Shown here piece by piece: positions 14,456 through 25,105 of a DNA stretch of 38,159 nt (positions are counted from its first letter, which is position 1; each line of letters begins with the position of its first letter). Position numbers and translations under genes: made by a program. Below the pieces are notes generated by a model. It searched no databases, had not been told where the DNA came from, and saw only the letters and a list, made by a program, of their open reading frames with translations. Source of the stretch: Alphaproteobacteria bacterium (GTDB lineage: Bacteria; Pseudomonadota; Alphaproteobacteria; ATCC43930; CGMCC-115725); assembly GCA_019244535.1 (NCBI GenBank), contig JAFASL010000782.1, positions 1-38,159 on the forward strand, in the 5' to 3' direction.

Positions 14456-16414
14456 ATGGCAGTGCAAGTCTCCTGGCCCGGCGTCTACATCGAGGAATTC
14501 GCGCCGGCCGCGCCGATCCAGGGCGTCAGTACCAGCACGCCGGCGTTCATCGGCGTGGCCGCGAGCGGGCCTTTGCGCGTGCCGACATTGCTGACCAGCT
14601 GGGACGCGTTCAAAACAGGTTTCGGCGCGTTGCCCGTCCACGGTTTCTTCCTGTGGTACGCCGTGCGCGGTTTTTTCGAGAATGGCGGCCAGGATTGCTA
14701 TGTCGTGCGTGCCAGCAACGGCGCGTACGGCACGCTGGTCGTCGACACCCGGACCGGCGGATTGCCGCTCTTCACGGTCAGCGCGCGTCAGCCGGGAGCC
14801 GCAGTGATCGGCATTACGATTGCCAATCAGCACCTGCTGGACAGCGCCAATACCACTCTGTTCCGTCCCACCGGCGCACTGACCGCCGCCGCGGCAGTGG
14901 GCGACAAGCAGATTGTGATGAGCCTCGCCGATGCTGCAAAATTCCGTCCGGGAGACGTGATTACGATCGCCGCCGACGGTGAGAGCCTGCAGGTCGCGCG
15001 CGTCAGCACTGCCGGCGGGGTCGGCACCCTGCTGCTCAGCTCGCCGCTCGCCAATCCTTATGCGATCGCCGATGTCGCGCGGCTCGCCAACACCCCGGTC
15101 GGCGCGACGACCTTCCGTCTGTCCTCAACGGTCGCGATCCCCGCCGGCGCACTGGTCGCCGGGACGATGCTGACATTTACGCAGGGCGGCAACAGCGACA
15201 GTGAGATCGTTGGGTCAGTGCAGACCGAGCAACTCGGCGGCGGTGTCGTCACCTATCGCGTGACCCTCGTGCAAGGGTTGGGTTTTCCGGTCGACATGAC
15301 TGCCGCGGCGATAGTGCAGTCCGAGGAATTCAGTCTGACGGTGACGCAGGGCGCGGGCAGTCAGGTCTATAGCGGTCTTGCTACCGATAACAGCCACCCC
15401 CGCAACTACCTCGCAGTAGTCAATGGCGATGCGAGCGGCCTCGTTACGATCACGCCGCAACAGCCGCCGCCACCCGTTCCGATGCCAGGCAATATGCCGG
15501 CTGCGGCGGCAGCCAATCTCGCAGGCGGCGCAGCCGAGGACCTGACAACCCTTACCGATCAGAATTTCATCGACGCGCTTGACACATTGCACGGCATCTC
15601 CGACGTCAACATGATCGCGGTACCCGACCGCATCACCGCGGCAGTGCAGCAGGCGATGATCGCCCAGTGCGAGCTGCTCGCCGACCGGTTCGGCGTGCTC
15701 GACGCCCACCCCGGGCTGGACCCGTTCGCGCCGGCGCAATTGCCGGCGCAGCGCGCCGGGCTGGACTCGGCCCGCGGTTATGCCGCGCTCTACTACCCTT
15801 GGCTGATGGTGCCGCCTGCCGGGAGCGGCGACCCCATTCTGGTACCTCCTTCCGGTCACACCTGCGGCATCTTTGCACTCACCGATCAGACGCGCGGGGT
15901 CTTCAAAGCGCCGGCCAATGCCACGGTCAATGGCGCAGTCGGGCTGGAGCGGGTGCTGAGCGACATCGACCAGGGCATCCTGAACCTCGAAGGCATCAAC
16001 TGCTTCCGGGTGTTTCAGACCGGCGGCCGGCCGTATCTGTGGGCGGCACGCAGCACCGCCACCGATGCAAACTGGCAATACGTCAACATCAGGCGGCTGT
16101 TCATCTATCTCGAAAAATCGATCCAGGAGGGCATCCGCTGGGCCGTCTTCGAGCCCAACAACACCCAACTCTGGAACAAGCTGAAGCGATCGATCGGCGC
16201 CTTTTTGAACCAGGCTTGGCGTGACGGGGCGCTGTTCGGCGACAAGGCCACCGACGCCTATTACGTGCGCATCGACGAGGTGCTGAACCCGTTCTCCGAG
16301 CAGCAGCTCGGCCGGCTGCACATCGAAATCGGCGTCAGGCCCAGCTACCCCGCGGAGTTCATCATCGTGCGCATCGGCATCTGGGCCGGCGGCTCGGATG
16401 TCAGCGAGACCTAG
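14456..16414 (+). CDS. Contractile tail sheath protein (Afp2-4/Pvc2-4-like)
   Basis: ATG 14456 is preceded by GAGGGAA. The N-terminus is typical of sheaths (SWPGVYIEEFAPAAPIQGVSTSTPAFIGVA). The C-terminal block is conserved (YYPWLMV...GIFALTDQTRGVFKAPANA...INCFRVF...GRPYLWAARS). Confidence 0.95.
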   Translation: MAVQVSWPGVYIEEFAPAAPIQGVSTSTPAFIGVAASGPLRVPTLLTSWDAFKTGFGALPVHGFFLWYAVRGFFENGGQDCYVVRASNGAYGTLVVDTRTGGLPLFTVSARQPGAAVIGITIANQHLLDSANTTLFRPTGALTAAAAVGDKQIVMSLADAAKFRPGDVITIAADGESLQVARVSTAGGVGTLLLSSPLANPYAIADVARLANTPVGATTFRLSSTVAIPAGALVAGTMLTFTQGGNSDSEIVGSVQTEQLGGGVVTYRVTLVQGLGFPVDMTAAAIVQSEEFSLTVTQGAGSQVYSGLATDNSHPRNYLAVVNGDASGLVTITPQQPPPPVPMPGNMPAAAAANLAGGAAEDLTTLTDQNFIDALDTLHGISDVNMIAVPDRITAAVQQAMIAQCELLADRFGVLDAHPGLDPFAPAQLPAQRAGLDSARGYAALYYPWLMVPPAGSGDPILVPPSGHTCGIFALTDQTRGVFKAPANATVNGAVGLERVLSDIDQGILNLEGINCFRVFQTGGRPYLWAARSTATDANWQYVNIRRLFIYLEKSIQEGIRWAVFEPNNTQLWNKLKRSIGAFLNQAWRDGALFGDKATDAYYVRIDEVLNPFSEQQLGRLHIEIGVRPSYPAEFIIVRIGIWAGGSDVSET

Positions 16415-16431: not shown

Positions 16432-16863
16432 ATGGCAATTTCCGACCCGTACGGCAATTTTAACTTTCTTGTCGAGATCGACGGGATCGTGCGCGCCGCG
16501 TTCCACGAGGTGAGCGGCCTCGATTCGACAATCGACGTGATAGAGCACCGTGAAGGCAACGACCCGGTGATGCGCAAGTACCCGGGTCAGGTGAAGTATT
16601 CGAATCTGACCTTGAAGTGGGGGATTGCCAGCGACACCGACCTCTACAACTGGCATCGCCAGTGGGTCATAGGCGACCCCGCCGCCAAGCGGCTGACCGG
16701 CTCGGTCGTCGTCTACGACCGCCAAGGCAAGACCGAGTTGGCGCGCTGGAATTTCATCAATGCGTGGCCGGCGAAATGGACGGGCCCGACTTTCAATGCC
16801 GAAAGCAATGATATTGCGATCGAGACGCTCGAACTCGCGCATGAAGGCGTCGCCCGGGCGTAA
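16432..16863 (+). CDS. Tail tube protein (T4 gp19-like; Afp1/Afp5-like)
   Basis: MAISDPYGNFNFLVEIDGIVRAAFHEVSGLDSTIDVIEHREGND...KYSNLTLKWGI is the conserved inner-tube family signature. The gene lies immediately after the sheath gene. Confidence 0.95.
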   Translation: MAISDPYGNFNFLVEIDGIVRAAFHEVSGLDSTIDVIEHREGNDPVMRKYPGQVKYSNLTLKWGIASDTDLYNWHRQWVIGDPAAKRLTGSVVVYDRQGKTELARWNFINAWPAKWTGPTFNAESNDIAIETLELAHEGVARA

Positions 16864-16889: not shown

Positions 16890-17276
16890 ATGTTCCAGAC
16901 CGAATTCGATTTCACACTGCCCTGCGGCTATCTCGACGAGCACGGTACACTGCATCGCGACGGGATCATGCGGCGCGCCACTGCGGCCGACGAGATCCTG
17001 CCGCTGCGCGACCCGCGCGTCGCTGACAACCAGGCTTATCTGGCCGTGATCCTGTTGTCGCGCGTCGTGACGCGGCTCGGCTCGCTCACTGCAATCAACC
17101 CGAAAATCATTGAGGGCCTGTTTGCCACCGACATGGCCTTCCTGCAGGACCTCTACAATCGCGTCAACCGGCTCGACGGAGCCGGTGAGAACGTCACCTG
17201 CCCGGAATGCCGCCATCAGTTCTGGCGGGAGCCGACCCTCCCGGGGGAATCCTGGGCTACCCCCTCGGTCAACTGA
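16890..17276 (+). CDS. Tail assembly chaperone-like protein (positional analogue of P2 gpE / lambda gpG)
   Basis: ATG 16890 has AGGAG 8 nt upstream. The gene sits between the tube and tape-measure-candidate genes. It has good GC3 and no recognised catalytic motif. Its 3' end overlaps the next ORF by 70 nt. Confidence 0.7.
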   Translation: MFQTEFDFTLPCGYLDEHGTLHRDGIMRRATAADEILPLRDPRVADNQAYLAVILLSRVVTRLGSLTAINPKIIEGLFATDMAFLQDLYNRVNRLDGAGENVTCPECRHQFWREPTLPGESWATPSVN

Positions 17277-17407
17277 CCGAGGAGGTAGCCTTTATCGCCT
17301 ACTATTTCCACTGGCCGCACAGCGACATCGTCAATTTGGAGCACGCGGATCGACGCCAATGGGTCGCGCGCATTTCCGAGATCAACCGGAGAGAAAGCGG
17401 TGAATAA
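17207..17407 (+). CDS. DUF6760-like small protein (conserved eCIS accessory); possibly expressed as a -1 frameshift extension of the preceding ORF
   Basis: The conserved-looking core is YPLGQLTEEVAFIAYYFHWPHSDIVNLEHADRRQWVARISEINRRE. ATG 17207 has no convincing Shine-Dalgarno. The ORF lies in the -1 frame relative to 16890..17276. Confidence 0.65.
   Translation: MPPSVLAGADPPGGILGYPLGQLTEEVAFIAYYFHWPHSDIVNLEHADRRQWVARISEINRRESGE
17240..17282 (+). promoter_or_regulatory. Candidate -1 programmed ribosomal frameshift signal: heptamer C_CCG_GGG (17240-17246) plus a perfect 8-bp hairpin CCTCGGTC-AACT-GACCGAGG (17263-17282)
   Basis: The heptamer fits X_XXY_YYZ in the zero frame of ORF 16890..17276 (ctC CCG GGG). 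Slipping by -1 enters the 17207..17407 frame (CCC GGG GGA ATC...). The hairpin spans the zero-frame stop codon (TGA 17274-17276). Confidence 0.35.
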
Positions 17408-18152
17408 CGCCGGCTCGCCAATGAGGATAACAAGACGCGAGATGCGCGTTGCACGCCGGACCGCATCGTGCACTCTCCTGGGCTCCCGGCCAGTCATTGG
17501 CAACACGGCCGCTTTCGTGCGCGGCGTGCTGCTCCGCCATGGCGGGCGCCGCCCCGTGCTCCAGCCGCTCGACCGCGCTTTTCGGCGCCCATTCTTTGCC
17601 ATGGTGTTCGCCCGTCACACCCACCGGCATGACCAGCGGACAAACTTGAGGATCGGCCTCGCTTTGCAGCCCTTGTTGCGCCGGCGCGAAATCGTCCGTC
17701 CATTCGTAGCCTGGCGTGCCGCCGCACCGGGTGCCGCCGCGGCAATGCCGCCACAGCGCTCGCCGGATCTCGTCACCCGGATTCTCGCCCGCGAGCGCCG
17801 CGTCGAATCCGTAGCGGCGATCCACACGCTGCTCGAGCGCATCGTCCGCGAGCACGACCGCTCTAGGCCGGTTGGGCCGGTCGCGCCGATGCCGGCACCG
17901 CCGGCCCCGGCGGTGCCGATGATCATCCGGCGGCCGGCCGCGCCGCCGCTACCCGGTGAAGCCAGTCGCCCTCATCCGCATGGCCGTTCCGATGTCGCTG
18001 ATTGGGGTGTTCCCGTGGCACCGCCACGACCCGCGGTGCCGTCGGCGCCGATCCCGTTCAGCCCGACTGAGCTGAGCCGTCTCACCGATCACGTCGTCCG
18101 CGCAATCGACCATCGCTTCACCGCGCATCGCGAGCGGCACGGGAGGATCTGA
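17400..18152 (+). CDS. Hypothetical protein; positional tape-measure candidate (P2 gpT position), Arg/Pro-rich
   Basis: GTG 17400 has GGAGAG 6 nt upstream and overlaps the previous stop (GTGAATAA). GC3 is higher than in the mirrored antisense frame. The C-terminal helix reads FSPTELSRLTDHVVRAIDHRFTAHRERHGRI, and the N-proximal motif reads VIGNTAAFVRGVLLR. The composition of the N-terminal half is odd, so the start and extent are uncertain. Confidence 0.5.
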   Translation: MNNAGSPMRITRREMRVARRTASCTLLGSRPVIGNTAAFVRGVLLRHGGRRPVLQPLDRAFRRPFFAMVFARHTHRHDQRTNLRIGLALQPLLRRREIVRPFVAWRAAAPGAAAAMPPQRSPDLVTRILARERRVESVAAIHTLLERIVREHDRSRPVGPVAPMPAPPAPAVPMIIRRPAAPPLPGEASRPHPHGRSDVADWGVPVAPPRPAVPSAPIPFSPTELSRLTDHVVRAIDHRFTAHRERHGRI

Positions 18153-18155
18153 GCT

Positions 18156-18842
18156 ATGCCGATGGAGAAGGCAATCATTACCAATACACTGACCGGCCAG
18201 CAGATCCCGGTGATGTTCAATCCCGAGGAATACACCCTCAACCGGGAAATCAACTACGCCCAGTCGGTCATTCCGGGTCTCAGCGGGCCGGTTCTTCAGT
18301 TCGTCAGCGGCAATATGCAGACGCTCGAAATGGAATTGTTTGCCGATACTTATGAAGAGCACCGCTTTGGCGCCCGCGTGCTCAACAGCGCGCAATCGGA
18401 TGTTCGGGCCTTTACCAACCAGATAACGGATCTGATGAATATCCAGCCGGCCTCGCACGGGCCGCCGGTTCTGCTGTTTACCTGGGCTTCGCTGTCGTTC
18501 ACCTGCGTGCTCGCGCGGGCGAGCCAGCGGTTCATCATGTTTCTCCCCGACGGGACGCCGGTCCGCGCGCGGCTGCAGGTCGTCTTCAACGAGTTCCGCA
18601 ACGTCGATCTCGAAGCCAAGGAGGTAAAGCGCGAAACCGCCGACTTCACAAAGCGGTACACCGTCAATCAGGGCGAGACCCTTTCCGGCATCGCGGCCGC
18701 CAGTTACGGCGACCCGGCCCTGTGGCGGGTGATTGCCCTGGCCAATGCGATCGACCAGCCGCGTCCACTGGCCGCCGGGCAGGAACTGGTATTGCCGAAC
18801 CTGCCCTACCGCGACCCCGATACCGGCGTCGTCTACAGCTAG
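18156..18842 (+). CDS. LysM-domain tube-initiator / baseplate hub protein (Afp7/Pvc7-like)
   Basis: ATG 18156 has GGGAGGA upstream. The N-terminal tube-like fold pattern reads VMFNPEEYTLNREINYA...LEMELFADT. The C-terminal LysM reads YTVNQGETLSGIAAASYGDPALWRVIALANAIDQPRPLAAGQELVLP. Confidence 0.9.
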   Translation: MPMEKAIITNTLTGQQIPVMFNPEEYTLNREINYAQSVIPGLSGPVLQFVSGNMQTLEMELFADTYEEHRFGARVLNSAQSDVRAFTNQITDLMNIQPASHGPPVLLFTWASLSFTCVLARASQRFIMFLPDGTPVRARLQVVFNEFRNVDLEAKEVKRETADFTKRYTVNQGETLSGIAAASYGDPALWRVIALANAIDQPRPLAAGQELVLPNLPYRDPDTGVVYS

Positions 18843-18856
18843 CCGAGGATCTGAAC

Positions 18857-20056
18857 GTGGACGGCAGCCGCTTCATTCCCGATTTCCGCCTCCAGCTCGG
18901 CGGGGTTCCAGTTCCGGCGGAATTGCGCGCCTCGATCTCAAGCGTGACGTTGGTCAGCGGGCTCGAAGGCGCCGATCGGGTCGAGATCACCCTGGTGAAT
19001 GACGGGCTGCGCTGGCTCGACCAAGCAATATTCGCGCTCGATACCCCGGTGGCCTTGCAGCTCGGCTACGCCGATACCGGGACTCAGCAGGTCTTTGTCG
19101 CTCAGATCGTCGGCTTTGGCGCCGCCTTCCCGAGTGGTGCCGCTCCGACAGTGACGGTGACGGCGCAGGATGCACGTTACCGTCTAGCACAGGGCAACAA
19201 GGTGCGCTGGTTCGCGATCCCGATCCCGTCGGTCGGCGATTTTCCGCTGCCCGATGTCGCGACAGCGCCGCTGGTTGCATTGGAGAATCTGCTGTTACCG
19301 CTTATCGATCCGGTCGGCGCCGCACTGTCGGTGCTGCTCGGCGGCGCCGAGGCAGTCTCGTCGATCGCCGATCCGGGCAGTGCTCAGAAATTCATCCGCA
19401 AGCAGGCGAATGAGAGCGATTACGACTTCCTGACCAAGATCGCCAAGGAAAACGGCTGGGAGATGGTCATCGACCACGATGGCCCACTCGGCGGCCACAA
19501 GCTTCACTTCTTCTCGCCCCTCGGCCGGCTCGATGCCGATATCGACCTCGCCTATGGCGCGAGCCTGATGGAGTTCACACCGCGCGTTACCAATGTCGGA
19601 CAGATCTTCTCTGTCAGCGGCTATGTCTGGGTGCCGCCGATAAAGATGGTGTTCAACATCACCCTCGGTTTCGACTGGGACCGGATGGCGCTCACTTTGG
19701 CGATTTATCCCGGCGGCATCGCTTTTGGCCCCAGTACCCCCTCGGCCGACCTGATCGACGATCCGCTGACCTTGGCGACTGCGCCGCGCAAACTGGTCAG
19801 CGAGCTGATCCCCAAGCTCAACAAACGCCTGACGGCTACCGGGACCACCCTCGGCGATCCCGGCATCATCGCCGGAAAGGTTCTGCGCATCACCGGGGTC
19901 GGCGTCCAGTTCGGCGGGTTGTGGCGCGTCACCGAGGCGACCCACACGCTCGACAGTGGTGGCTACCGCACGCATTTCGAGCTGCGCAAGGAGATCTGGT
20001 TCGGCTCGATCCCATTGCCGGCGCAGGGCGCAATACCGGTGCGGGTGAGTTTTTAG
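18857..20056 (+). CDS. Phage late-control gpD-like / VgrG-N (Afp8 N-terminal-like) baseplate hub protein
   Basis: GTG 18857 has GAGGA upstream, directly after the LysM gene stop. The motifs RASISSVTLVSGLEGADRVEITL, DYDFLTKIAKENGWEMVIDHDG and GLWRVTEATHTLDSGGYRTHFELRK are typical of the gpD/VgrG hub family. Confidence 0.85.
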   Translation: MDGSRFIPDFRLQLGGVPVPAELRASISSVTLVSGLEGADRVEITLVNDGLRWLDQAIFALDTPVALQLGYADTGTQQVFVAQIVGFGAAFPSGAAPTVTVTAQDARYRLAQGNKVRWFAIPIPSVGDFPLPDVATAPLVALENLLLPLIDPVGAALSVLLGGAEAVSSIADPGSAQKFIRKQANESDYDFLTKIAKENGWEMVIDHDGPLGGHKLHFFSPLGRLDADIDLAYGASLMEFTPRVTNVGQIFSVSGYVWVPPIKMVFNITLGFDWDRMALTLAIYPGGIAFGPSTPSADLIDDPLTLATAPRKLVSELIPKLNKRLTATGTTLGDPGIIAGKVLRITGVGVQFGGLWRVTEATHTLDSGGYRTHFELRKEIWFGSIPLPAQGAIPVRVSF

Positions 20057-20074: not shown

Positions 20075-20722
20075 ATGGCGGAGAGCCTGTTCGAGTTCGG
20101 CTGGCAGCCGGCCGCGGAGAAGGATGACAAGATCTACGGCGTCGCGATTGCGACAGTGATCGACAATATCGACTCGCTCGGCGAGGCGCGCGTCCAGGTC
20201 AGCCTGCCATGGGCACCGGGCTTTGAGCCTTGGGCCCGCATCGCGACGATGATGGCGGGAATGGAACGCGGCAGCTTTTTCATCCCGCAGGTCGGCGACG
20301 AGGTCTTGGTCGGCTTCAACCACGGCGACATCCGCGAGCCCTTCATTCTCGGCGCATTGTGGAACACGCTCGACCGGCCCCCGGCGCTGCTGCCGACCGA
20401 CGCGGTCAATAAACGGATCATCCGCACACCGCTCGGCCAGCAGATCACCTTTGACGATGCCGAGCAGTCGATCACGATCAGCAATTTGCTGCAATTCCAG
20501 CTGAGCCTGGGCCCGGAAGAGAGTGAACTGGCGAGCGCGGGCGCCTCGGTGTCCCTCGACATTGCGGGCAATGTGACCATCACCGGCGCGGCCGGCATCA
20601 CGCTGCAGGCGCCGTCGATCACGATCGACGGCGAGAACGTGTCGATCTCTGGAAGCGCCGGGGTCACGGTCGACGGCGGCGCCGACTGCACGATCCTCGC
20701 CGGCGAGATCAATATCGGGTGA
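20075..20722 (+). CDS. gpV / gp5 OB-fold spike protein (Afp8 C-terminal-like) with a beta-helical tip
   Basis: KIYGVAIATVIDNIDSLGEARVQVSLPWAP...WARIATMMAGMERGSFFIPQVGDEVLVGFNHGDIREPFILGALWN is the classical baseplate-assembly-protein-V / VgrG OB-fold signature. Confidence 0.9.
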   Translation: MAESLFEFGWQPAAEKDDKIYGVAIATVIDNIDSLGEARVQVSLPWAPGFEPWARIATMMAGMERGSFFIPQVGDEVLVGFNHGDIREPFILGALWNTLDRPPALLPTDAVNKRIIRTPLGQQITFDDAEQSITISNLLQFQLSLGPEESELASAGASVSLDIAGNVTITGAAGITLQAPSITIDGENVSISGSAGVTVDGGADCTILAGEINIG

Positions 20723-20733
20723 GGAAGACGCCA

Positions 20734-21012
20734 ATGCCCAATGCCGCCGTGATGTTCTCGCCGACCTCCCACCCGGGCACGGTCGCCGGGCCGGGCGCGC
20801 CGACCGTGAAAATCGCCGGCCTGCCCGCTGCCGTCGTCGGCGACCAGCATATCTGCGCCTTTCCGGTCCCTCCCGGCCATCCGCCTAACATCGTCGCCAA
20901 AGGCAGCGCAACGGTGAAATTTGGCGGCCGGCCGGCAGCGAGGGTCGGCGATCTCTGCGCCTGCGGGGCCCAGATCGAAGCCGGCGTTCCAACCGTGAAT
21001 ATCGGCGGCTAA
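20734..21012 (+). CDS. PAAR-domain spike-tip protein (Afp10-like)
   Basis: ATG 20734 has GAGGAAG upstream. PAAR-type motifs are LPAAVVGD and RPAARVGD, plus Cys/His ligand candidates (HICAFP, CACG). Confidence 0.9.
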   Translation: MPNAAVMFSPTSHPGTVAGPGAPTVKIAGLPAAVVGDQHICAFPVPPGHPPNIVAKGSATVKFGGRPAARVGDLCACGAQIEAGVPTVNIGG

Positions 21013-21026
21013 GACGGAGAACGGCC

Positions 21027-21431
21027 TTGGCGACCGACAGCAAGGCATTTCTGGGACGCGGCTGGGCCTACCCGGTCGCTGTCGATGCGACTGGGGAAAT
21101 CGCTACCGCCGCTTATGAGGATGATGTCCAGCAGGCGATCCGCATTATCCTCGGCACCGAGCCGGGAGAGCGGGTCATGCGCCCCGATTTCGGCACTGGC
21201 CTGCGCAGCCTAATGTTCGAGCCGATCAACACCACGACGATCGCGCTTGCCCGGCATCGGGTCGAGCAGGCGCTGACCTTGTGGGAGCCGCGCATCGACA
21301 CGGTCAAGGTGACCGTGGATGCCGACCCGCCAGCCGGCAAGCTCAACATCGCCGTTGCCTACCGGGTTCGCACGACCAACACGTTTTATAACCTCGTCTA
21401 CCCCTTCTATCTGCAGGAGGGCGGCGGTTGA
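21027..21431 (+). CDS. GPW/gp25-family baseplate wedge protein (Afp9-like)
   Basis: TTG 21027 has GGAGA upstream. LGRGWAYPV...DDVQQAIRIILGTEPGERVMRPDFGTGLRSLMFEP is the gp25/GPW signature. Confidence 0.9.
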   Translation: MATDSKAFLGRGWAYPVAVDATGEIATAAYEDDVQQAIRIILGTEPGERVMRPDFGTGLRSLMFEPINTTTIALARHRVEQALTLWEPRIDTVKVTVDADPPAGKLNIAVAYRVRTTNTFYNLVYPFYLQEGGG

Positions 21432-24400
21432 TGTCCGGGTCCCCGATCATCGACGGCCGCGACCGGGCACAGATCCTCGCTGACCTGATCGCCCGCGCTC
21501 CGGCCTACGTCCCCGAATGGTCGATCGCTCAGGACACGCCGGCCTATGCCCTTCTCGCAATACTCGCGCGCGGTGTCGAGATCCAGGCAGCCGCCGAAAA
21601 CGGCATGCCCGACGGGGCCCGGCTCGGGTTTTTGAGCACGCTTGGCAATAGCCTTCTGTCGGCGCAGTCGGCGCGCACGCCGCTGGTCTTTCAGTTGATG
21701 CCCAATGCGCCGCTCGATGTCACCCTTGCGGGCGACAGTCAGGTCGCGGCGAAATTGCCGCCGCCACCGCCGTCGCTGCTGGGCAGCGCACAGGCGACGC
21801 CACCGGCGCCCATCTTTTCCACCGAGGGGACGATCACGCTGACGCGCGCCAAGCTCACCGCGCTCTATTCCGTCGATCCCAATGCCGATACCTACGCCGA
21901 CCATACAACAGCGCTGACCAGCGGCTTTACGCTGTTCGACCAGATGCAGCCGGTCCCGCATCAGCTGTATCTCGGCCACGACTCGCTGTTTGCGATCTCG
22001 GCCAATGCGGAGATCGAGCTCTCTTTCGATCTGGGGGCCACGCATGCCAAGAACGCGCCGCCGCCGATGCTGATCGATTGGGAATATCTGAGCGCGGACG
22101 GCTGGCTGCCGCTGCGCACGGTCTCCGACCGCACCGCTCGCTTGACCCAGGACGGGCGCATAACGTTGCACCTCGACTGCGGCCCTGATGCCGACAAGGG
22201 CAAGGTCAACGGCATCGAGAGCTATTGGCTGCGCGGTACCGTCAGCACTCGGGTGCCGAGCGGCACGATCGGCCCATTGCCCGGCGGCTACAGCATTACC
22301 TGGTCTGAGAGCAAACCGATCCATGACGCCGCGGCCAGCCTGACACCCCTGACGATCGCCGGCACGCCAACAACTCCCGACGGGGTACCCAATCAGGCCA
22401 TCATCACCAAAGTCCAGCGCTCGACGATCACTCTAAATAAATCACTGTTTGGGGCGCGAGTAGGCGCGAGTGTCGTCGCTGCCGGCGCCAATACTTTTGT
22501 CGGGCGCATCGCCGGTCACGTCGGCGGCGTCACCTTGGTGCTGGAGGGCATCGATCCCGGGCGGGCCATCACGATCCCCGCCCCTGGCGCCAATACCGCC
22601 ATGGTCATTGGCGAGCTCAACGGTACCGCCGTGCTGGACCAGCCGCTTGTCGGCGCCGCCGCTAAAGCCGCCCTCAACGATGCCGAGACCGGTGACCCGG
22701 TGGGCACGCTCGACGGGTTCGACCCCGATTTTCTGGTGCCGCTGGACAGCGCCGCCGATTTCTTGAAGGGCGATGCTGTCACCGTCGACGCGACGACGCA
22801 CGCAACGATTACCGCAGTGACCGCTACCTCGGTGTCGCTCGACGGAAGCATCAGCGCTGTCTCGCAGGGCAACCAGCTGACGTTGCTCAATGCATTGCCG
22901 GTGTTGCGGCCGGAGGGCGCCAGCGCCACCGGTTCGCTTCCCAGCGTCGACATCATCCGTGCGCGGGTCGGTTTCACCAAGTCGAATCTGAAGCCGGACG
23001 CCGCCGCCACCGACACCTCGCCGCTCGACACCGGGAACGCGTTCTACCCATTCGGCCGGCAGCCGCAGAAATTCACGACGTTTTACATCGCCAGCAAGGA
23101 GGTCTTTCAGCGTCAAGGCGCGCAGGTCGACATCGTGGTGACCTTGGCCCAGACCGGCGCCACCTTTAACGACAACGACATGGCAGTGCCGAACGCGATG
23201 CTGTGGACGGTCGAATATTACAACGGCGACGGCTGGCTGCCGCTCGGCGGCGGACAGAAACTGGCCGATGAGACTCACACGATGACGGTCGCCGGCCCGG
23301 CCAACATCAGTTTTCTCTGCCCCGCCGACTGGGCCGACACGAAGGTCAACGGCCAATCCAACAAATGGCTGCGGATCCGCATCGACGCTGGCAATTACGG
23401 CCATCCGTTACGGCTCACCGTCGACAATACGGTAAGCCCGCCACTGGTCAAGAGCGATCCCGCAACCCTTCAACCGCCGGTCGTCGCCTCGCTGCGGCTG
23501 CAATATACTTACCTGACCAATTCCGATCTGCTCGACCACTGCGTGTCCTACAACGATTTCGCGTATATCGATCATTCGGAGGACGTGCGCTGGCCGCGCC
23601 GGCCATTCCAGCCATTCACTCCAGTCAACGACACCCAGCCGGCAGTACATTTCGGCTTTTCGGCGCTGCTGCCGCCCGGGCTCGTCAGTCTTTACTTTGC
23701 CGCCGGCAATCGCAGTGACGGGCCGAGCGGCGGCGCTCCCACTTCGTCGCCTTTCCTGTGGGAGTATTACTCTTCCCGCGGCTGGATCGAGCTTGCAGTC
23801 CTCGACGAAAGCGACGGGTTTACTGGCAGCGGGCTCATTCAGTTCGTCGGCCCGCCCGATGCCATTCCGCTGCTCGGGCTGCGCGACACACCATATTGGC
23901 TGCGCGCCCGGCTCAAGCCCGAATTGCCGGTGCAGACCCTTCCGGCGACCGGCCTCTGGCTCAATGCGGTATGGGCGCACCAAGGCGAGACGGTGCAGCA
24001 GGATCTGCTCGGGTCGAGCAACGGGAATCCCGGGCAAACCTTTGTCTTCGCGCCCCAGCATGTGCCAGTGCTGCCCGGCGAGGTCGTCGAGGTGCGCGAG
24101 TGGCAGGGCCGCGGCGAGTATTGGCAGACCGCAGCGGCCGGCGTGCCGCAAAGCGACCTGCGCTTTGTCGTCGACCCCAGCGACGGCAAGACAATCACCG
24201 AGGTCTGGGTCACCTGGCATTGGCAACCCTATTTCTATCTCTCCGGCCCGAACGACCGCCATTACGTATTGGAACGCGCGAGCGGCGCGCTGCAATTCCC
24301 GACGCCGCCCTACGGGATGATTCCGCCCGGCGGTGCGTCGATCGCCGCCAGCTATGCGACCGGAGGCGGTCTTTCCGGCAATGTGCCGGCCAATACGATC

Positions 24401-25105
24401 ACCGAATTGCACAGCGCAGCGAGCTACGTGCAGAGCGTCACCAATCCCTTCCCTGCGACGGGGGGCTCAGCAACCGAGTTGACGCCGCGCGCCCGCGACC
24501 GCGCGACGCAGCGCCTGCGTCATCGCGACCGAGCGCTTGCGCCGGCCGATTTCGAATGGCTCGCCCGCGAGGCGTCACCGGAGGTGGCGCGCGCCCGCTG
24601 CCTGCCGATCACCGGGCCGGACGGCACCGGCGAGCGCGGCTGGATCACTCTGGTCGTCATCCCTGGCAGCGTCGACCCCGCGCCGATGCCGACACCCGGT
24701 CTGCTCGCCGAGGTGGCAGCGGAACTCGAGGCGCGGGTGCCCGCCGCTATTGTCGGCCAGATCGTCCTCGCCCCGCCGACCTACATGCCAGTCGGCGTAC
24801 GCGCCGACATCGTGCCGCATCACGCAGACGAGGCGGCTCTGGTCGAGGCGCGGCTGCGCGAGCGGCTCACTGCGTTTCTGCACCCGCTGACCGGGGGCAG
24901 CGCTGGGACAGGCTGGGATTTCGGCCAGCCCGTCTACCTTTCGCAGATCGCTGCACTGGTCGAGCAGACCGAAGGGGTCGATTTTGTCCCGCTGCTTCAA
25001 CTCATCGTCGATGACGGAGTGGCGGGGGACATGGTCGCGATCTCCTCCGGCGCTCTCGTCACCCAGGGCGACCACCAGCTCAAACTAATGGCCGAGGAGA
25101 CGTGA
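21431..25105 (+). CDS. Large baseplate J/gp6-like wedge protein (Afp11-like), 1224 aa
   Basis: ATG 21431 overlaps the gp25 stop (TGATG). The C-terminal Baseplate_J-like block reads ATGGGLSGNVPANTITEL...VTNPFPATGGSATELTPRARDRATQRLRHRDRALAPADFEWLA. The position after gp25 matches the P2 W-J order. Confidence 0.85.
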   Translation: MSGSPIIDGRDRAQILADLIARAPAYVPEWSIAQDTPAYALLAILARGVEIQAAAENGMPDGARLGFLSTLGNSLLSAQSARTPLVFQLMPNAPLDVTLAGDSQVAAKLPPPPPSLLGSAQATPPAPIFSTEGTITLTRAKLTALYSVDPNADTYADHTTALTSGFTLFDQMQPVPHQLYLGHDSLFAISANAEIELSFDLGATHAKNAPPPMLIDWEYLSADGWLPLRTVSDRTARLTQDGRITLHLDCGPDADKGKVNGIESYWLRGTVSTRVPSGTIGPLPGGYSITWSESKPIHDAAASLTPLTIAGTPTTPDGVPNQAIITKVQRSTITLNKSLFGARVGASVVAAGANTFVGRIAGHVGGVTLVLEGIDPGRAITIPAPGANTAMVIGELNGTAVLDQPLVGAAAKAALNDAETGDPVGTLDGFDPDFLVPLDSAADFLKGDAVTVDATTHATITAVTATSVSLDGSISAVSQGNQLTLLNALPVLRPEGASATGSLPSVDIIRARVGFTKSNLKPDAAATDTSPLDTGNAFYPFGRQPQKFTTFYIASKEVFQRQGAQVDIVVTLAQTGATFNDNDMAVPNAMLWTVEYYNGDGWLPLGGGQKLADETHTMTVAGPANISFLCPADWADTKVNGQSNKWLRIRIDAGNYGHPLRLTVDNTVSPPLVKSDPATLQPPVVASLRLQYTYLTNSDLLDHCVSYNDFAYIDHSEDVRWPRRPFQPFTPVNDTQPAVHFGFSALLPPGLVSLYFAAGNRSDGPSGGAPTSSPFLWEYYSSRGWIELAVLDESDGFTGSGLIQFVGPPDAIPLLGLRDTPYWLRARLKPELPVQTLPATGLWLNAVWAHQGETVQQDLLGSSNGNPGQTFVFAPQHVPVLPGEVVEVREWQGRGEYWQTAAAGVPQSDLRFVVDPSDGKTITEVWVTWHWQPYFYLSGPNDRHYVLERASGALQFPTPPYGMIPPGGASIAASYATGGGLSGNVPANTITELHSAASYVQSVTNPFPATGGSATELTPRARDRATQRLRHRDRALAPADFEWLAREASPEVARARCLPITGPDGTGERGWITLVVIPGSVDPAPMPTPGLLAEVAAELEARVPAAIVGQIVLAPPTYMPVGVRADIVPHHADEAALVEARLRERLTAFLHPLTGGSAGTGWDFGQPVYLSQIAALVEQTEGVDFVPLLQLIVDDGVAGDMVAISSGALVTQGDHQLKLMAEET

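Follow-up and report, generated by a model that had tools for sequence, protein, structure and literature searches.

Programmed ribosomal frameshifting in tail assembly chaperone genes is, as a kind, well known: a -1 frameshift is conserved in these genes among double-stranded DNA phages (Levin 1993; Xu, Hendrix and Duda 2004, 2013, 2014; reviewed in PMC5009743). Here, we have analyzed a stretch of 38,159 nucleotides (nt) from an alphaproteobacterium (contig JAFASL010000782.1; hereafter the window), in which a contractile injection system locus of the extracellular type (eCIS) spans approximately 13.5-25 kb. Directly downstream of the tube gene (16432-16863, forward strand) lies a tail-assembly-chaperone-like open reading frame, ORF1 (16890-17276, forward strand), which is read in the zero frame to TGA 17274-17276 and gives a product of 128 amino acids by standard decoding. 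A second one, ORF2 (17207-17407, forward strand; 66 amino acids), corresponds to DUF6760, lies in the -1 frame relative to ORF1 and overlaps it by 70 nt; the coordinates, the overlap and the frame were all present as described in a first-pass annotation of this DNA. From the sequence features of the overlap and their conservation in other genomes, we infer that ORF1 and DUF6760 are very probably joined by a -1 programmed ribosomal frameshift, to which we assign a rough probability of 0.85.

Compared with the lambda G/GT genes, the locus shows a number of similarities. Two overlapping ORFs are located between the tube gene and a gene in the tape-measure position, the second of them lies in the -1 frame without a start of its own, a heptamer is found near the end of the first, two products with a common N-terminus are predicted, and ORF1 matches a chaperone family of the PHROG database. 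On the other hand, the locus belongs to a cellular contractile injection system and not to a phage, its slippery sequence is a G run (G_GGG_GRR, where R is a purine) instead of G_GGA_AAG, and it has a strong hairpin whose nucleotide-level conservation extends across phyla and domains. To our knowledge, lambda G/GT needs no such hairpin as a stimulator. The P2 E/E+E' genes, R-type pyocins and Mu-like tails share the contractile context and the order of sheath, tube, chaperone pair and next gene, and a small extension domain added by a -1 shift, as proposed here, is also known for P2 E/E+E'. However, ORF1 has no Pfam match to P2 gpE or Mu gp41, its family carries a CPxC motif, the extension is DUF6760 and the slippery sequence is a different one. 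RefSeq contains DUF6760 (PF20546) as the same family in the same neighbourhood, but treats it as a free-standing small protein, whereas we read it as the C-terminal domain of a probable fusion in most lineages. The Cis6/Afp6/Pvc6 spike plug (PMC8894136) is likewise a small protein encoded between the tube and baseplate genes. Particles contain that plug as a structural component but would not be expected to contain a chaperone extension, and the candidate identity of DUF6760 with the plug was rejected, as a profile built from 38 DUF6760 sequences retrieved no relevant PDB chain at E≤10, the entries of contractile injection systems (CIS) included.

In the literature other than subscription-only papers, we found no paper containing 'DUF6760' and none that links CIS, eCIS or the Streptomyces CIS to a programmed frameshift or to a tail assembly chaperone. 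In papers on CIS, genes of this type are described as subtype-specific or as further proteins whose function is unknown, and a tape measure is stated to be absent (PMC6899500, PMC10066040). The remark in the first-pass annotation that such a frameshift is not an established feature of eCIS loci agrees with both the literature and the annotation checks. What appears to be undescribed is this particular instance, its spread among cellular injection systems of both domains, the G-run heptamer and the hairpin conserved at the nucleotide level.

Relatives of the locus were searched with one genome per species, which gave 80 loci drawn from at least 586 confirmed places, and the ORF1 part and the DUF6760 part were located separately by tblastn. 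In 74 of the 80 genomes, the frame of DUF6760 was -1 relative to ORF1, and the nucleotide at which the two alignments meet was that of the window. Together with this relation and spacing, a G run and a hairpin recurred in these 74 genomes, which belong to different phyla and to both prokaryotic domains; the arrangement seen in the window is far more than chance would produce. On this comparative basis, the fusion of the chaperone-like ORF to DUF6760 by a -1 frameshift, as the first-pass annotation had proposed it, is strongly supported. Among Pseudomonadota, the -1 arrangement was identified in Lysobacter, Caldimonas, Mitsuaria, Undibacterium and Nitrosomonas, and it was also present in Bacillota (Paenibacillus), Cyanobacteriota (Okeania, Moorena and Elainella), Acidobacteriota, Chloroflexota, Gemmatimonadota, Verrucomicrobiota, Nitrospirota and Planctomycetota. 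Archaea with this arrangement included Methanosarcina (three isolates), Methanoperedens, ANME-2 and Hydrothermarchaeota, and the same arrangement was observed on complete plasmids of Nostoc, Rhodococcus and Streptomyces. The gene order was tube, ORF1, DUF6760 and then an ORF upstream of the tube initiator.

Exceptions to the -1 relation were of different kinds. In two loci from metagenome-assembled genomes, one of Halococcaceae (L004, 2880-2920) and one of Oscillospiraceae (L005, 2850-2880), DUF6760 is a separate gene with its own Shine-Dalgarno (SD) sequence and an ATG directly before the GYP motif of the domain; both lack the G run and have a disrupted stem. The RNA signals are not kept where DUF6760 has a start of its own. 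Separate ORFs with their own SD, an arrangement that the first-pass annotation would have counted against the frameshift, were seen in these two loci. Other exceptions (L034, L080, L086 and L090) are assemblies with further indels in the same gene, and L007 and L065 look degenerate. The detailed comparisons reported below are based on 75 loci, the window included.

The conserved slippery site of the window is G_GGG_GAA (17243-17249, forward strand), in which the G run occupies 17243-17247; the family consensus is G_GGG_GRR. Columns 17243-17247 were G in 73-75 of the 75 loci, whereas 17242 was almost never G. The run began at codon position 3 in 71 loci, and 17248 was a purine in 73, which leads to A-site codons of the type GGR or GAR. 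The zero-frame heptamers included G_GGG_GGG (31 loci), G_GGG_GAA (22 loci, including the window), G_GGG_GGA (11 loci) and G_GGG_GAG (6 loci); two further loci had the same motif one codon upstream, and in one locus (L047) the classical heptamer G_GGA_AAA replaced the G run in the same register. After a shift, GGR codons in the A site would re-pair on a perfect GGG and GAR codons on GGA. A perfect X_XXY_YYZ heptamer (G_GGG_GGG, G_GGG_GGA or G_GGG_GGT) was present in 43 of the 75 loci, and for G_GGG_GAA of the window the re-pairing is perfect in the P site (GGG to GGG) and only near-cognate in the A site (GAA to GGA, with one G.U pair).

The first-pass annotation had placed the slip one codon upstream of the conserved register, on C_CCG_GGG (17240-17246, forward strand). 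This heptamer does exist in the zero frame (ctC CCG GGG) and fits the X_XXY_YYZ pattern, and a real frameshift that in the window takes place mainly here is an alternative that we consider unlikely. The window sequence CCCGGGGG formally fits both registers, the spacer between C_CCG_GGG and the stem at 17255 is 8 nt, within the usual 5-9 nt, and the product would be identical (...TLPGGILGYPL...). Across orthologous loci, however, the frame relation and the hairpin were kept whereas this heptamer was not: the codon before the G run varies (CTG in 20 loci, CCG in 14, GCG in 11, GTG in 7, and others), and C_CCG_GGG was conserved in only 14 of the 75 loci. The classical heptamer of L047 also marks the register one codon downstream. 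In addition, C_CC.G_GG.C and C_CC.G_GG.U have been reported to be among the poorest frameshifters in Escherichia coli (PMC4066793), in line with the earlier caveat that CCCGGGG is not one of the classic efficient heptamers. It is possible that C_CCG_GGG serves as a secondary slip site, in the window only.

The conserved slippery site is followed, after a spacer of 5 nt (17250-17254, forward strand), by a predicted stimulatory hairpin (17255-17290, forward strand), with the 5' arm at 17255-17270, the loop at 17271-17274 and the 3' arm at 17275-17290. In its outer stem GGCUACC (17255-17261) pairs with GGUAGCC (17284-17290), a C.A mismatch is located at 17262/17283, and in the inner stem CCUCGGUC (17263-17270) pairs with GACCGAGG (17275-17282). 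The hairpin CCTCGGTC/AACT/GACCGAGG at 17263-17282, which spans TGA 17274-17276 and had been recognized before, is present, but the limits of 8 base pairs given to it were too narrow, as it forms the inner part of the 17255-17290 stem. The concern about a long spacer of 16 nt disappears as well, since the stem starts at 17255, 8 nt from the heptamer first proposed and 5 nt from the conserved one. The stem has 15 base pairs in the window; its conserved core has 12 (7 + 5), and the inner 3 are specific to the window.

Several lines of evidence indicated that the hairpin has been maintained as an RNA structure. The window RNA from 17236 to 17300 folded at -37.4 kcal/mol (z = -4.4), and none of 200 shuffled sequences folded as well. 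In the alignment of the 75 loci, standard pairs were found in 81.6% of cells, compared with 33-58% when the partners were slid. Changes on both sides occurred at 9 of 15 tested pairs, including pairs of the core (UA/CG, CG/GC, CG/UA and GC/AU), and the covariation score was reached by none of 500 shuffles, with much lower values in the slid controls. Refolding was restricted to the 45 nt downstream of the heptamer, since pairing of the G run was taken to be irrelevant as long as a ribosome covers it. In every one of the 75 loci, the minimum free energy structure of these 45 nt was the stem, with 5 or more of the 12 conserved pairs formed and, in 53 loci, 11 or 12; the median was -21.3 kcal/mol and the median z was -3.85. 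Although the stem is coding sequence of DUF6760, wobble positions inside it were 85-100% conserved, compared with 35-69% outside. For example, the Val codon of the stem was GTA in 67 of the 75 loci and GTG, which gives a U.G pair, in the other 8, and the Pro codon was CCC in 68; in the eCIS genes of the window itself, Val is encoded by GTA in 5% of cases and Pro by CCC in 24%.

No Rfam family matched the hairpin element. The Streptomyces plasmid loci keep G_GGG_GAA and have a different hairpin (CGUACGC.../...GCGUACG) 7 nt downstream; in L085 (3357-3411) and L087 (1857-1911) it takes the form CGUACGC(GG).../...(CC)GCGUACG and is shifted by about one codon. In addition, ORF1 of these plasmids carries a long extension at the N-terminus. 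In free RNA, the G run (17243-17247) can pair with CCCCC of the 5' arm (17260-17264), and this pairing was the minimum-energy fold of the whole region in some orthologues (also L006, L061 and L084); it could compete with the stimulatory stem when the slip site is free of ribosomes. The 3' arm contains a nearly invariant GAGGAGG (17279-17285), a perfect SD-like sequence that is sequestered in the stem and encodes Glu-Glu in the -1 frame.

The interval available for a shift was defined in each locus as that between the nearest upstream stop of the -1 frame and the stop of the zero frame. Both frames were open in all 75 loci from -6 to +6 around the anchor position 17246, and this stretch of approximately 13 nt is centred on the nearly invariant G run. 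In 32 loci, the -1 frame contained no ATG, GTG or TTG from the upstream stop to the invariant GYP motif of DUF6760, as in Methanosarcina sp. DH2 (TGA ACA GGG GGA ATA ACC GGC TAC), and 27 of the 75 loci lacked any start at +3 or +6. The ATG that nominally opens ORF2 (17207-17209, forward strand) overlaps, as gaA TGc, the codon of the invariant Cys107 in the CPxC motif of ORF1, and the NTG codons found in orthologues at -48 and -39 of the -1 frame arise from the two Cys codons of the same motif. Because of these overlaps, the ATG is most likely a by-product of a Cys codon of ORF1 rather than a real start. No SD sequence was visible upstream of it in the window, as had been stated before, and 32 of the 75 orthologues have a -1-frame stop after the corresponding position and then no start codon.

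If the frameshift takes place as we propose, ORF1 and DUF6760 would constitute one recoded gene. Most ribosomes would stop at 17274-17276 and produce the 128-amino acid chaperone-like protein. A fraction of them would stall with the hairpin 17255-17290 at the mRNA entrance, 5 nt past the slippery site, and would slip one base back on G_GGG_GAA (17243-17249), with Gly-tRNA re-pairing from GGG to GGG in the P site and Glu-tRNA from GAA to the near-cognate GGA in the A site; alternatively, the P-site tRNA may slip alone before the A site is filled. Translation would then proceed in the -1 frame to 17407, through the extension that encodes DUF6760 (17246-17407, forward strand; GILGYPLGQLTEEVAFIAYYFHW...; PF20546), whose stop codon is 17405-17407. 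The predicted trans-frame product joins 16890-17246 to 17246-17404 and has 172 amino acids, close to the previous estimate of approximately 170. It would read ...FWREPTLPG-(G or E)-ILGYPLGQLTEEVAF..., with a junction ...TLPG-G-ILGYPL... (...EPTLPGGILGYPLGQL...) after a slip of the P-site tRNA or on C_CCG_GGG, and ...TLPG-E-ILGYPL... (...EPTLPGEILGYPLGQL...) after tandem slippage on G_GGG_GAA.

ORF1 matched the PHROG family phrog_508 'tail assembly chaperone' with E 6.7e-5, and the same family was matched by all 14 of the 14 ORF1 family members searched (best E 1.4e-8). A protein search yielded 4849 homologues of ORF1 at E≤0.001, and the family has the invariant CPxC motif near its C-terminus, which is zinc-ribbon-like. 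One member (P0013, 250 amino acids, on a 184-kb contig) contains the ORF1 domain twice, in tandem. Residues 22-62 of ORF2 matched DUF6760 (PF20546) with 46.8 bits, compared with a gathering threshold of 27, and DUF6760 members weakly matched small phage 'tail protein' PHROGs. The protein search with the 53-amino acid DUF6760 part returned 19 proteins, a number that probably reflects a word-index limit and was not used as a count. No match was found for ORF1 or ORF2 in NCBIfam or, by tblastn, among 50,697 phage records. For the fused homologue P0005, an AlphaFold2 model (predicted local distance difference test (pLDDT) score of 73) had an N-terminal domain consisting of a beta-hairpin plus helices, a low-confidence linker at residues 116-123, exactly at the junction, and a confident helical DUF6760 domain (pLDDT 81-91).

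The PHROG match of ORF1, the weak matches of DUF6760 to phage 'tail protein' PHROGs and the gene order are the reasons for assigning the pair to the G/GT or E/E+E' type. We lean towards a G/GT-like function, for which the chaperone role and the binding partners are proposed purely by analogy with the phage mechanism (reviewed in PMC5009743). If the pair works as lambda G/GT and P2 E/E+E' do, the tape-measure-like protein encoded by the next gene would be coated by the short product. The rare fusion would bring in the tube protein through its DUF6760 tail and thereby let the tube polymerise on the baseplate, and neither of the two products would be expected in the finished particle. It also seems somewhat more probable than not that G_GGG_GRR together with the 12-base-pair hairpin represents an ancient recoding signal, preserved nearly unchanged at the level of single bases in the contractile injection system loci of many bacterial phyla and of methanogenic/methanotrophic archaea, in which the chaperone-DUF6760 fusion is obligatory and its ratio to the short product controls tube assembly.

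A number of observations weigh against the proposed frameshift or against the function assigned to its products. With regard to the function, ORF1 had no match to any Pfam family of tail assembly chaperones. The PDB sequence search with the ORF1 profile gave spurious zinc-finger matches only, and Foldseek comparison of the P0005 model with PDB and BFVD gave nothing significant, which neither supports nor opposes a chaperone fold; such a fold was confirmed by neither search. The 250-amino acid ORF next to DUF6760, which holds the tape-measure position, is short for a tape measure and had no Pfam, PHROG or NCBIfam match. With regard to the frameshift, G_GGG_GAA is not a perfect X_XXY_YYZ heptamer, and G-rich heptamers are weak in E. 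coli, where G_GG.G_GG.U was the lowest without a stimulator (PMC4066793). Most heptamers responded to a strong stimulator in the same study, which fits the strong downstream structure observed here. Furthermore, GTG, ATG or TTG was present at +3 or +6, just after the G run, in 17 of the 75 loci, RefSeq annotates two separate coding sequences ('phage tail assembly protein' and 'DUF6760 family protein'), and the two lineages in which DUF6760 is truly separate, with SD and ATG (L004 and L005), imply that covalent fusion is not universally required.

The last three of these points would speak for ORF1 and DUF6760 being two independent genes, with DUF6760 initiated at the existing ATG 17207, at a rare start codon directly following the G run with the run serving as SD sequence, or by termination-reinitiation at the stop of ORF1. 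G runs can indeed serve as SD and direct weak initiation on a nearby AUA (PMC4066793). Nevertheless, we consider two independent genes very unlikely. ATG 17207 appears to be a by-product of a Cys codon without SD, with -1-frame stops there in many orthologues, and the loci lacking a canonical start, or any start at +3 or +6, are hard to reconcile with independent initiation. Only 1 nt separates the G run from the first candidate codon, which leaves too little room for the run to serve as SD sequence, and G_GGA_AAA of L047 is not SD-like. A strong hairpin 5 nt past the heptamer would hinder initiation, and yet it is conserved with compensatory changes. As for reinitiation, the stop of ORF1 lies 19-40 nt downstream of the anchor position, at or beyond the GYP codons, in the window (28 nt) and in 15 other loci, so that reinitiation could not yield the conserved N-terminus of DUF6760. 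Finally, independent genes would be expected to show random frames and spacings, whereas 74 of 80 were in the -1 frame at identical spacing. It should be noted that the DUF6760 starts annotated in RefSeq vary: ATA in Nostoc (L084, 3363-3533), a truncated start in Rhodococcus (L088, 1884-2027) and a GTG overlapping the upstream stop in Streptomyces (L085, 3366-3524), which suggests that the annotation pipeline has trouble finding the start of DUF6760.

It is very unlikely that transcriptional slippage adding one G, or variation of G-tract length in the population, puts the two ORFs in frame. In favour of this reading, the conserved element consists of 5-8 G in a row, one extra G gives exactly the in-frame fusion and assemblies with an extra G exist (P0003 and P0005, with 8 G compared with 7 in relatives). 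Against it, the run has a length of only 5 G in 28 of the 75 loci, one of them the window, whereas programmed transcriptional slippage in bacteria uses much longer runs of approximately 9 A or T. In addition, its codon register and the GGR or GAR codon next to it are decoding constraints and not polymerase ones, the conserved hairpin is spaced by 5 nt, as is typical for ribosomal -1 frameshifting, L047 has G_GGA_AAA instead of a run, and other fused or off-frame assemblies carry further indels that make sequencing error likely.

In-frame fused proteins were found in metagenomes, and their junction GG[VI][VI]GYPL is the same as the predicted one. As proof of fusion, however, these homologues (P0003, P0005, P0009, P0083 and others) were given little weight, since they contain an extra G or further indels; most of them are probably homopolymer or long-read errors. 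Off-frame or fused versions (L001/L002 at 3340-3360, L089, L090, L034, L080 and L086) differ from typical loci by one G in the run or have extra indels in the same gene. They show how, in metagenome and long-read assemblies, an error in a homopolymer may imitate a recoding site or conceal one.

The remaining genes of the locus were assigned by profile searches of the window proteins. A Pvc16_N-type terminator (13527-14438) and the sheath (14456-16414) precede the tube gene, which is Phage_T4_gp19 or CIS1-CIS5-like (Pfam PF06841, E 3.4e-47; NCBIfam TIGR02241, CIS5_fam). Three ORFs (ORF1, ORF2 and the 250-amino acid ORF) separate the tube gene from the tube initiator of the CIS_tube+LysM type (18156-18842), which is followed by a gpD-like hub (18722-20056), a gpV/VgrG OB-fold spike (20075-20722), PAAR (20719-21012), gp25 (21027-21431) and Baseplate_J (21428-25105). 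The 250-amino acid ORF (17400-18152, forward strand) has a GTG start that shares bases with the stop of DUF6760 (GTGAATAA), and its conservation in orthologous loci is limited to the C-terminal 35-100 amino acids or so. It is a candidate client of the chaperone-like ORF1, by analogy with the phage systems; the gene at this position in Streptomyces encodes a large protein related to tape measure proteins (PMC11126660). The first-pass annotation had placed the pair between the tube gene and a tape-measure candidate, and of this the tube gene directly upstream was found, whereas the 250-amino acid ORF is a tape-measure candidate by position only. Immediately before the Pvc16_N gene is a 1467-amino acid ORF (9073-13476, forward strand) that had no Pfam match and may encode a cargo or effector protein; it contains stretches rich in Ala, Lys and Pro and, close to its C-terminus, a sequence that is repeated internally (...FETALNKAAASGKGSWADRVG... 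/ ...FEQALNKAAKAGEGSWPEKVG...).

If the proposed reading is true, few cellular -1 frameshift sites would be distributed as widely as this one, the site would be a rare one for archaea, and lineage II eCIS, which are said to lack a tape measure system, would assemble their tube by the phage G/GT route. The loci offer a naturally replicated recoding series, comprising G_GGG_GGG, G_GGG_GAA, G_GGA_AAA, the different hairpin of Streptomyces and the separate genes in two lineages, and supply candidates for -1 frameshifting in archaea. Confirmation would mean that thousands of database entries need correcting, from two genes, sometimes with implausible starts, to one recoded gene, and would provide lineage II and Streptomyces-type contractile injection systems with a phage-like tail assembly chaperone. 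This would bear on how tube length is set and cargo is loaded, and would be relevant to the engineering of these particles as delivery devices.

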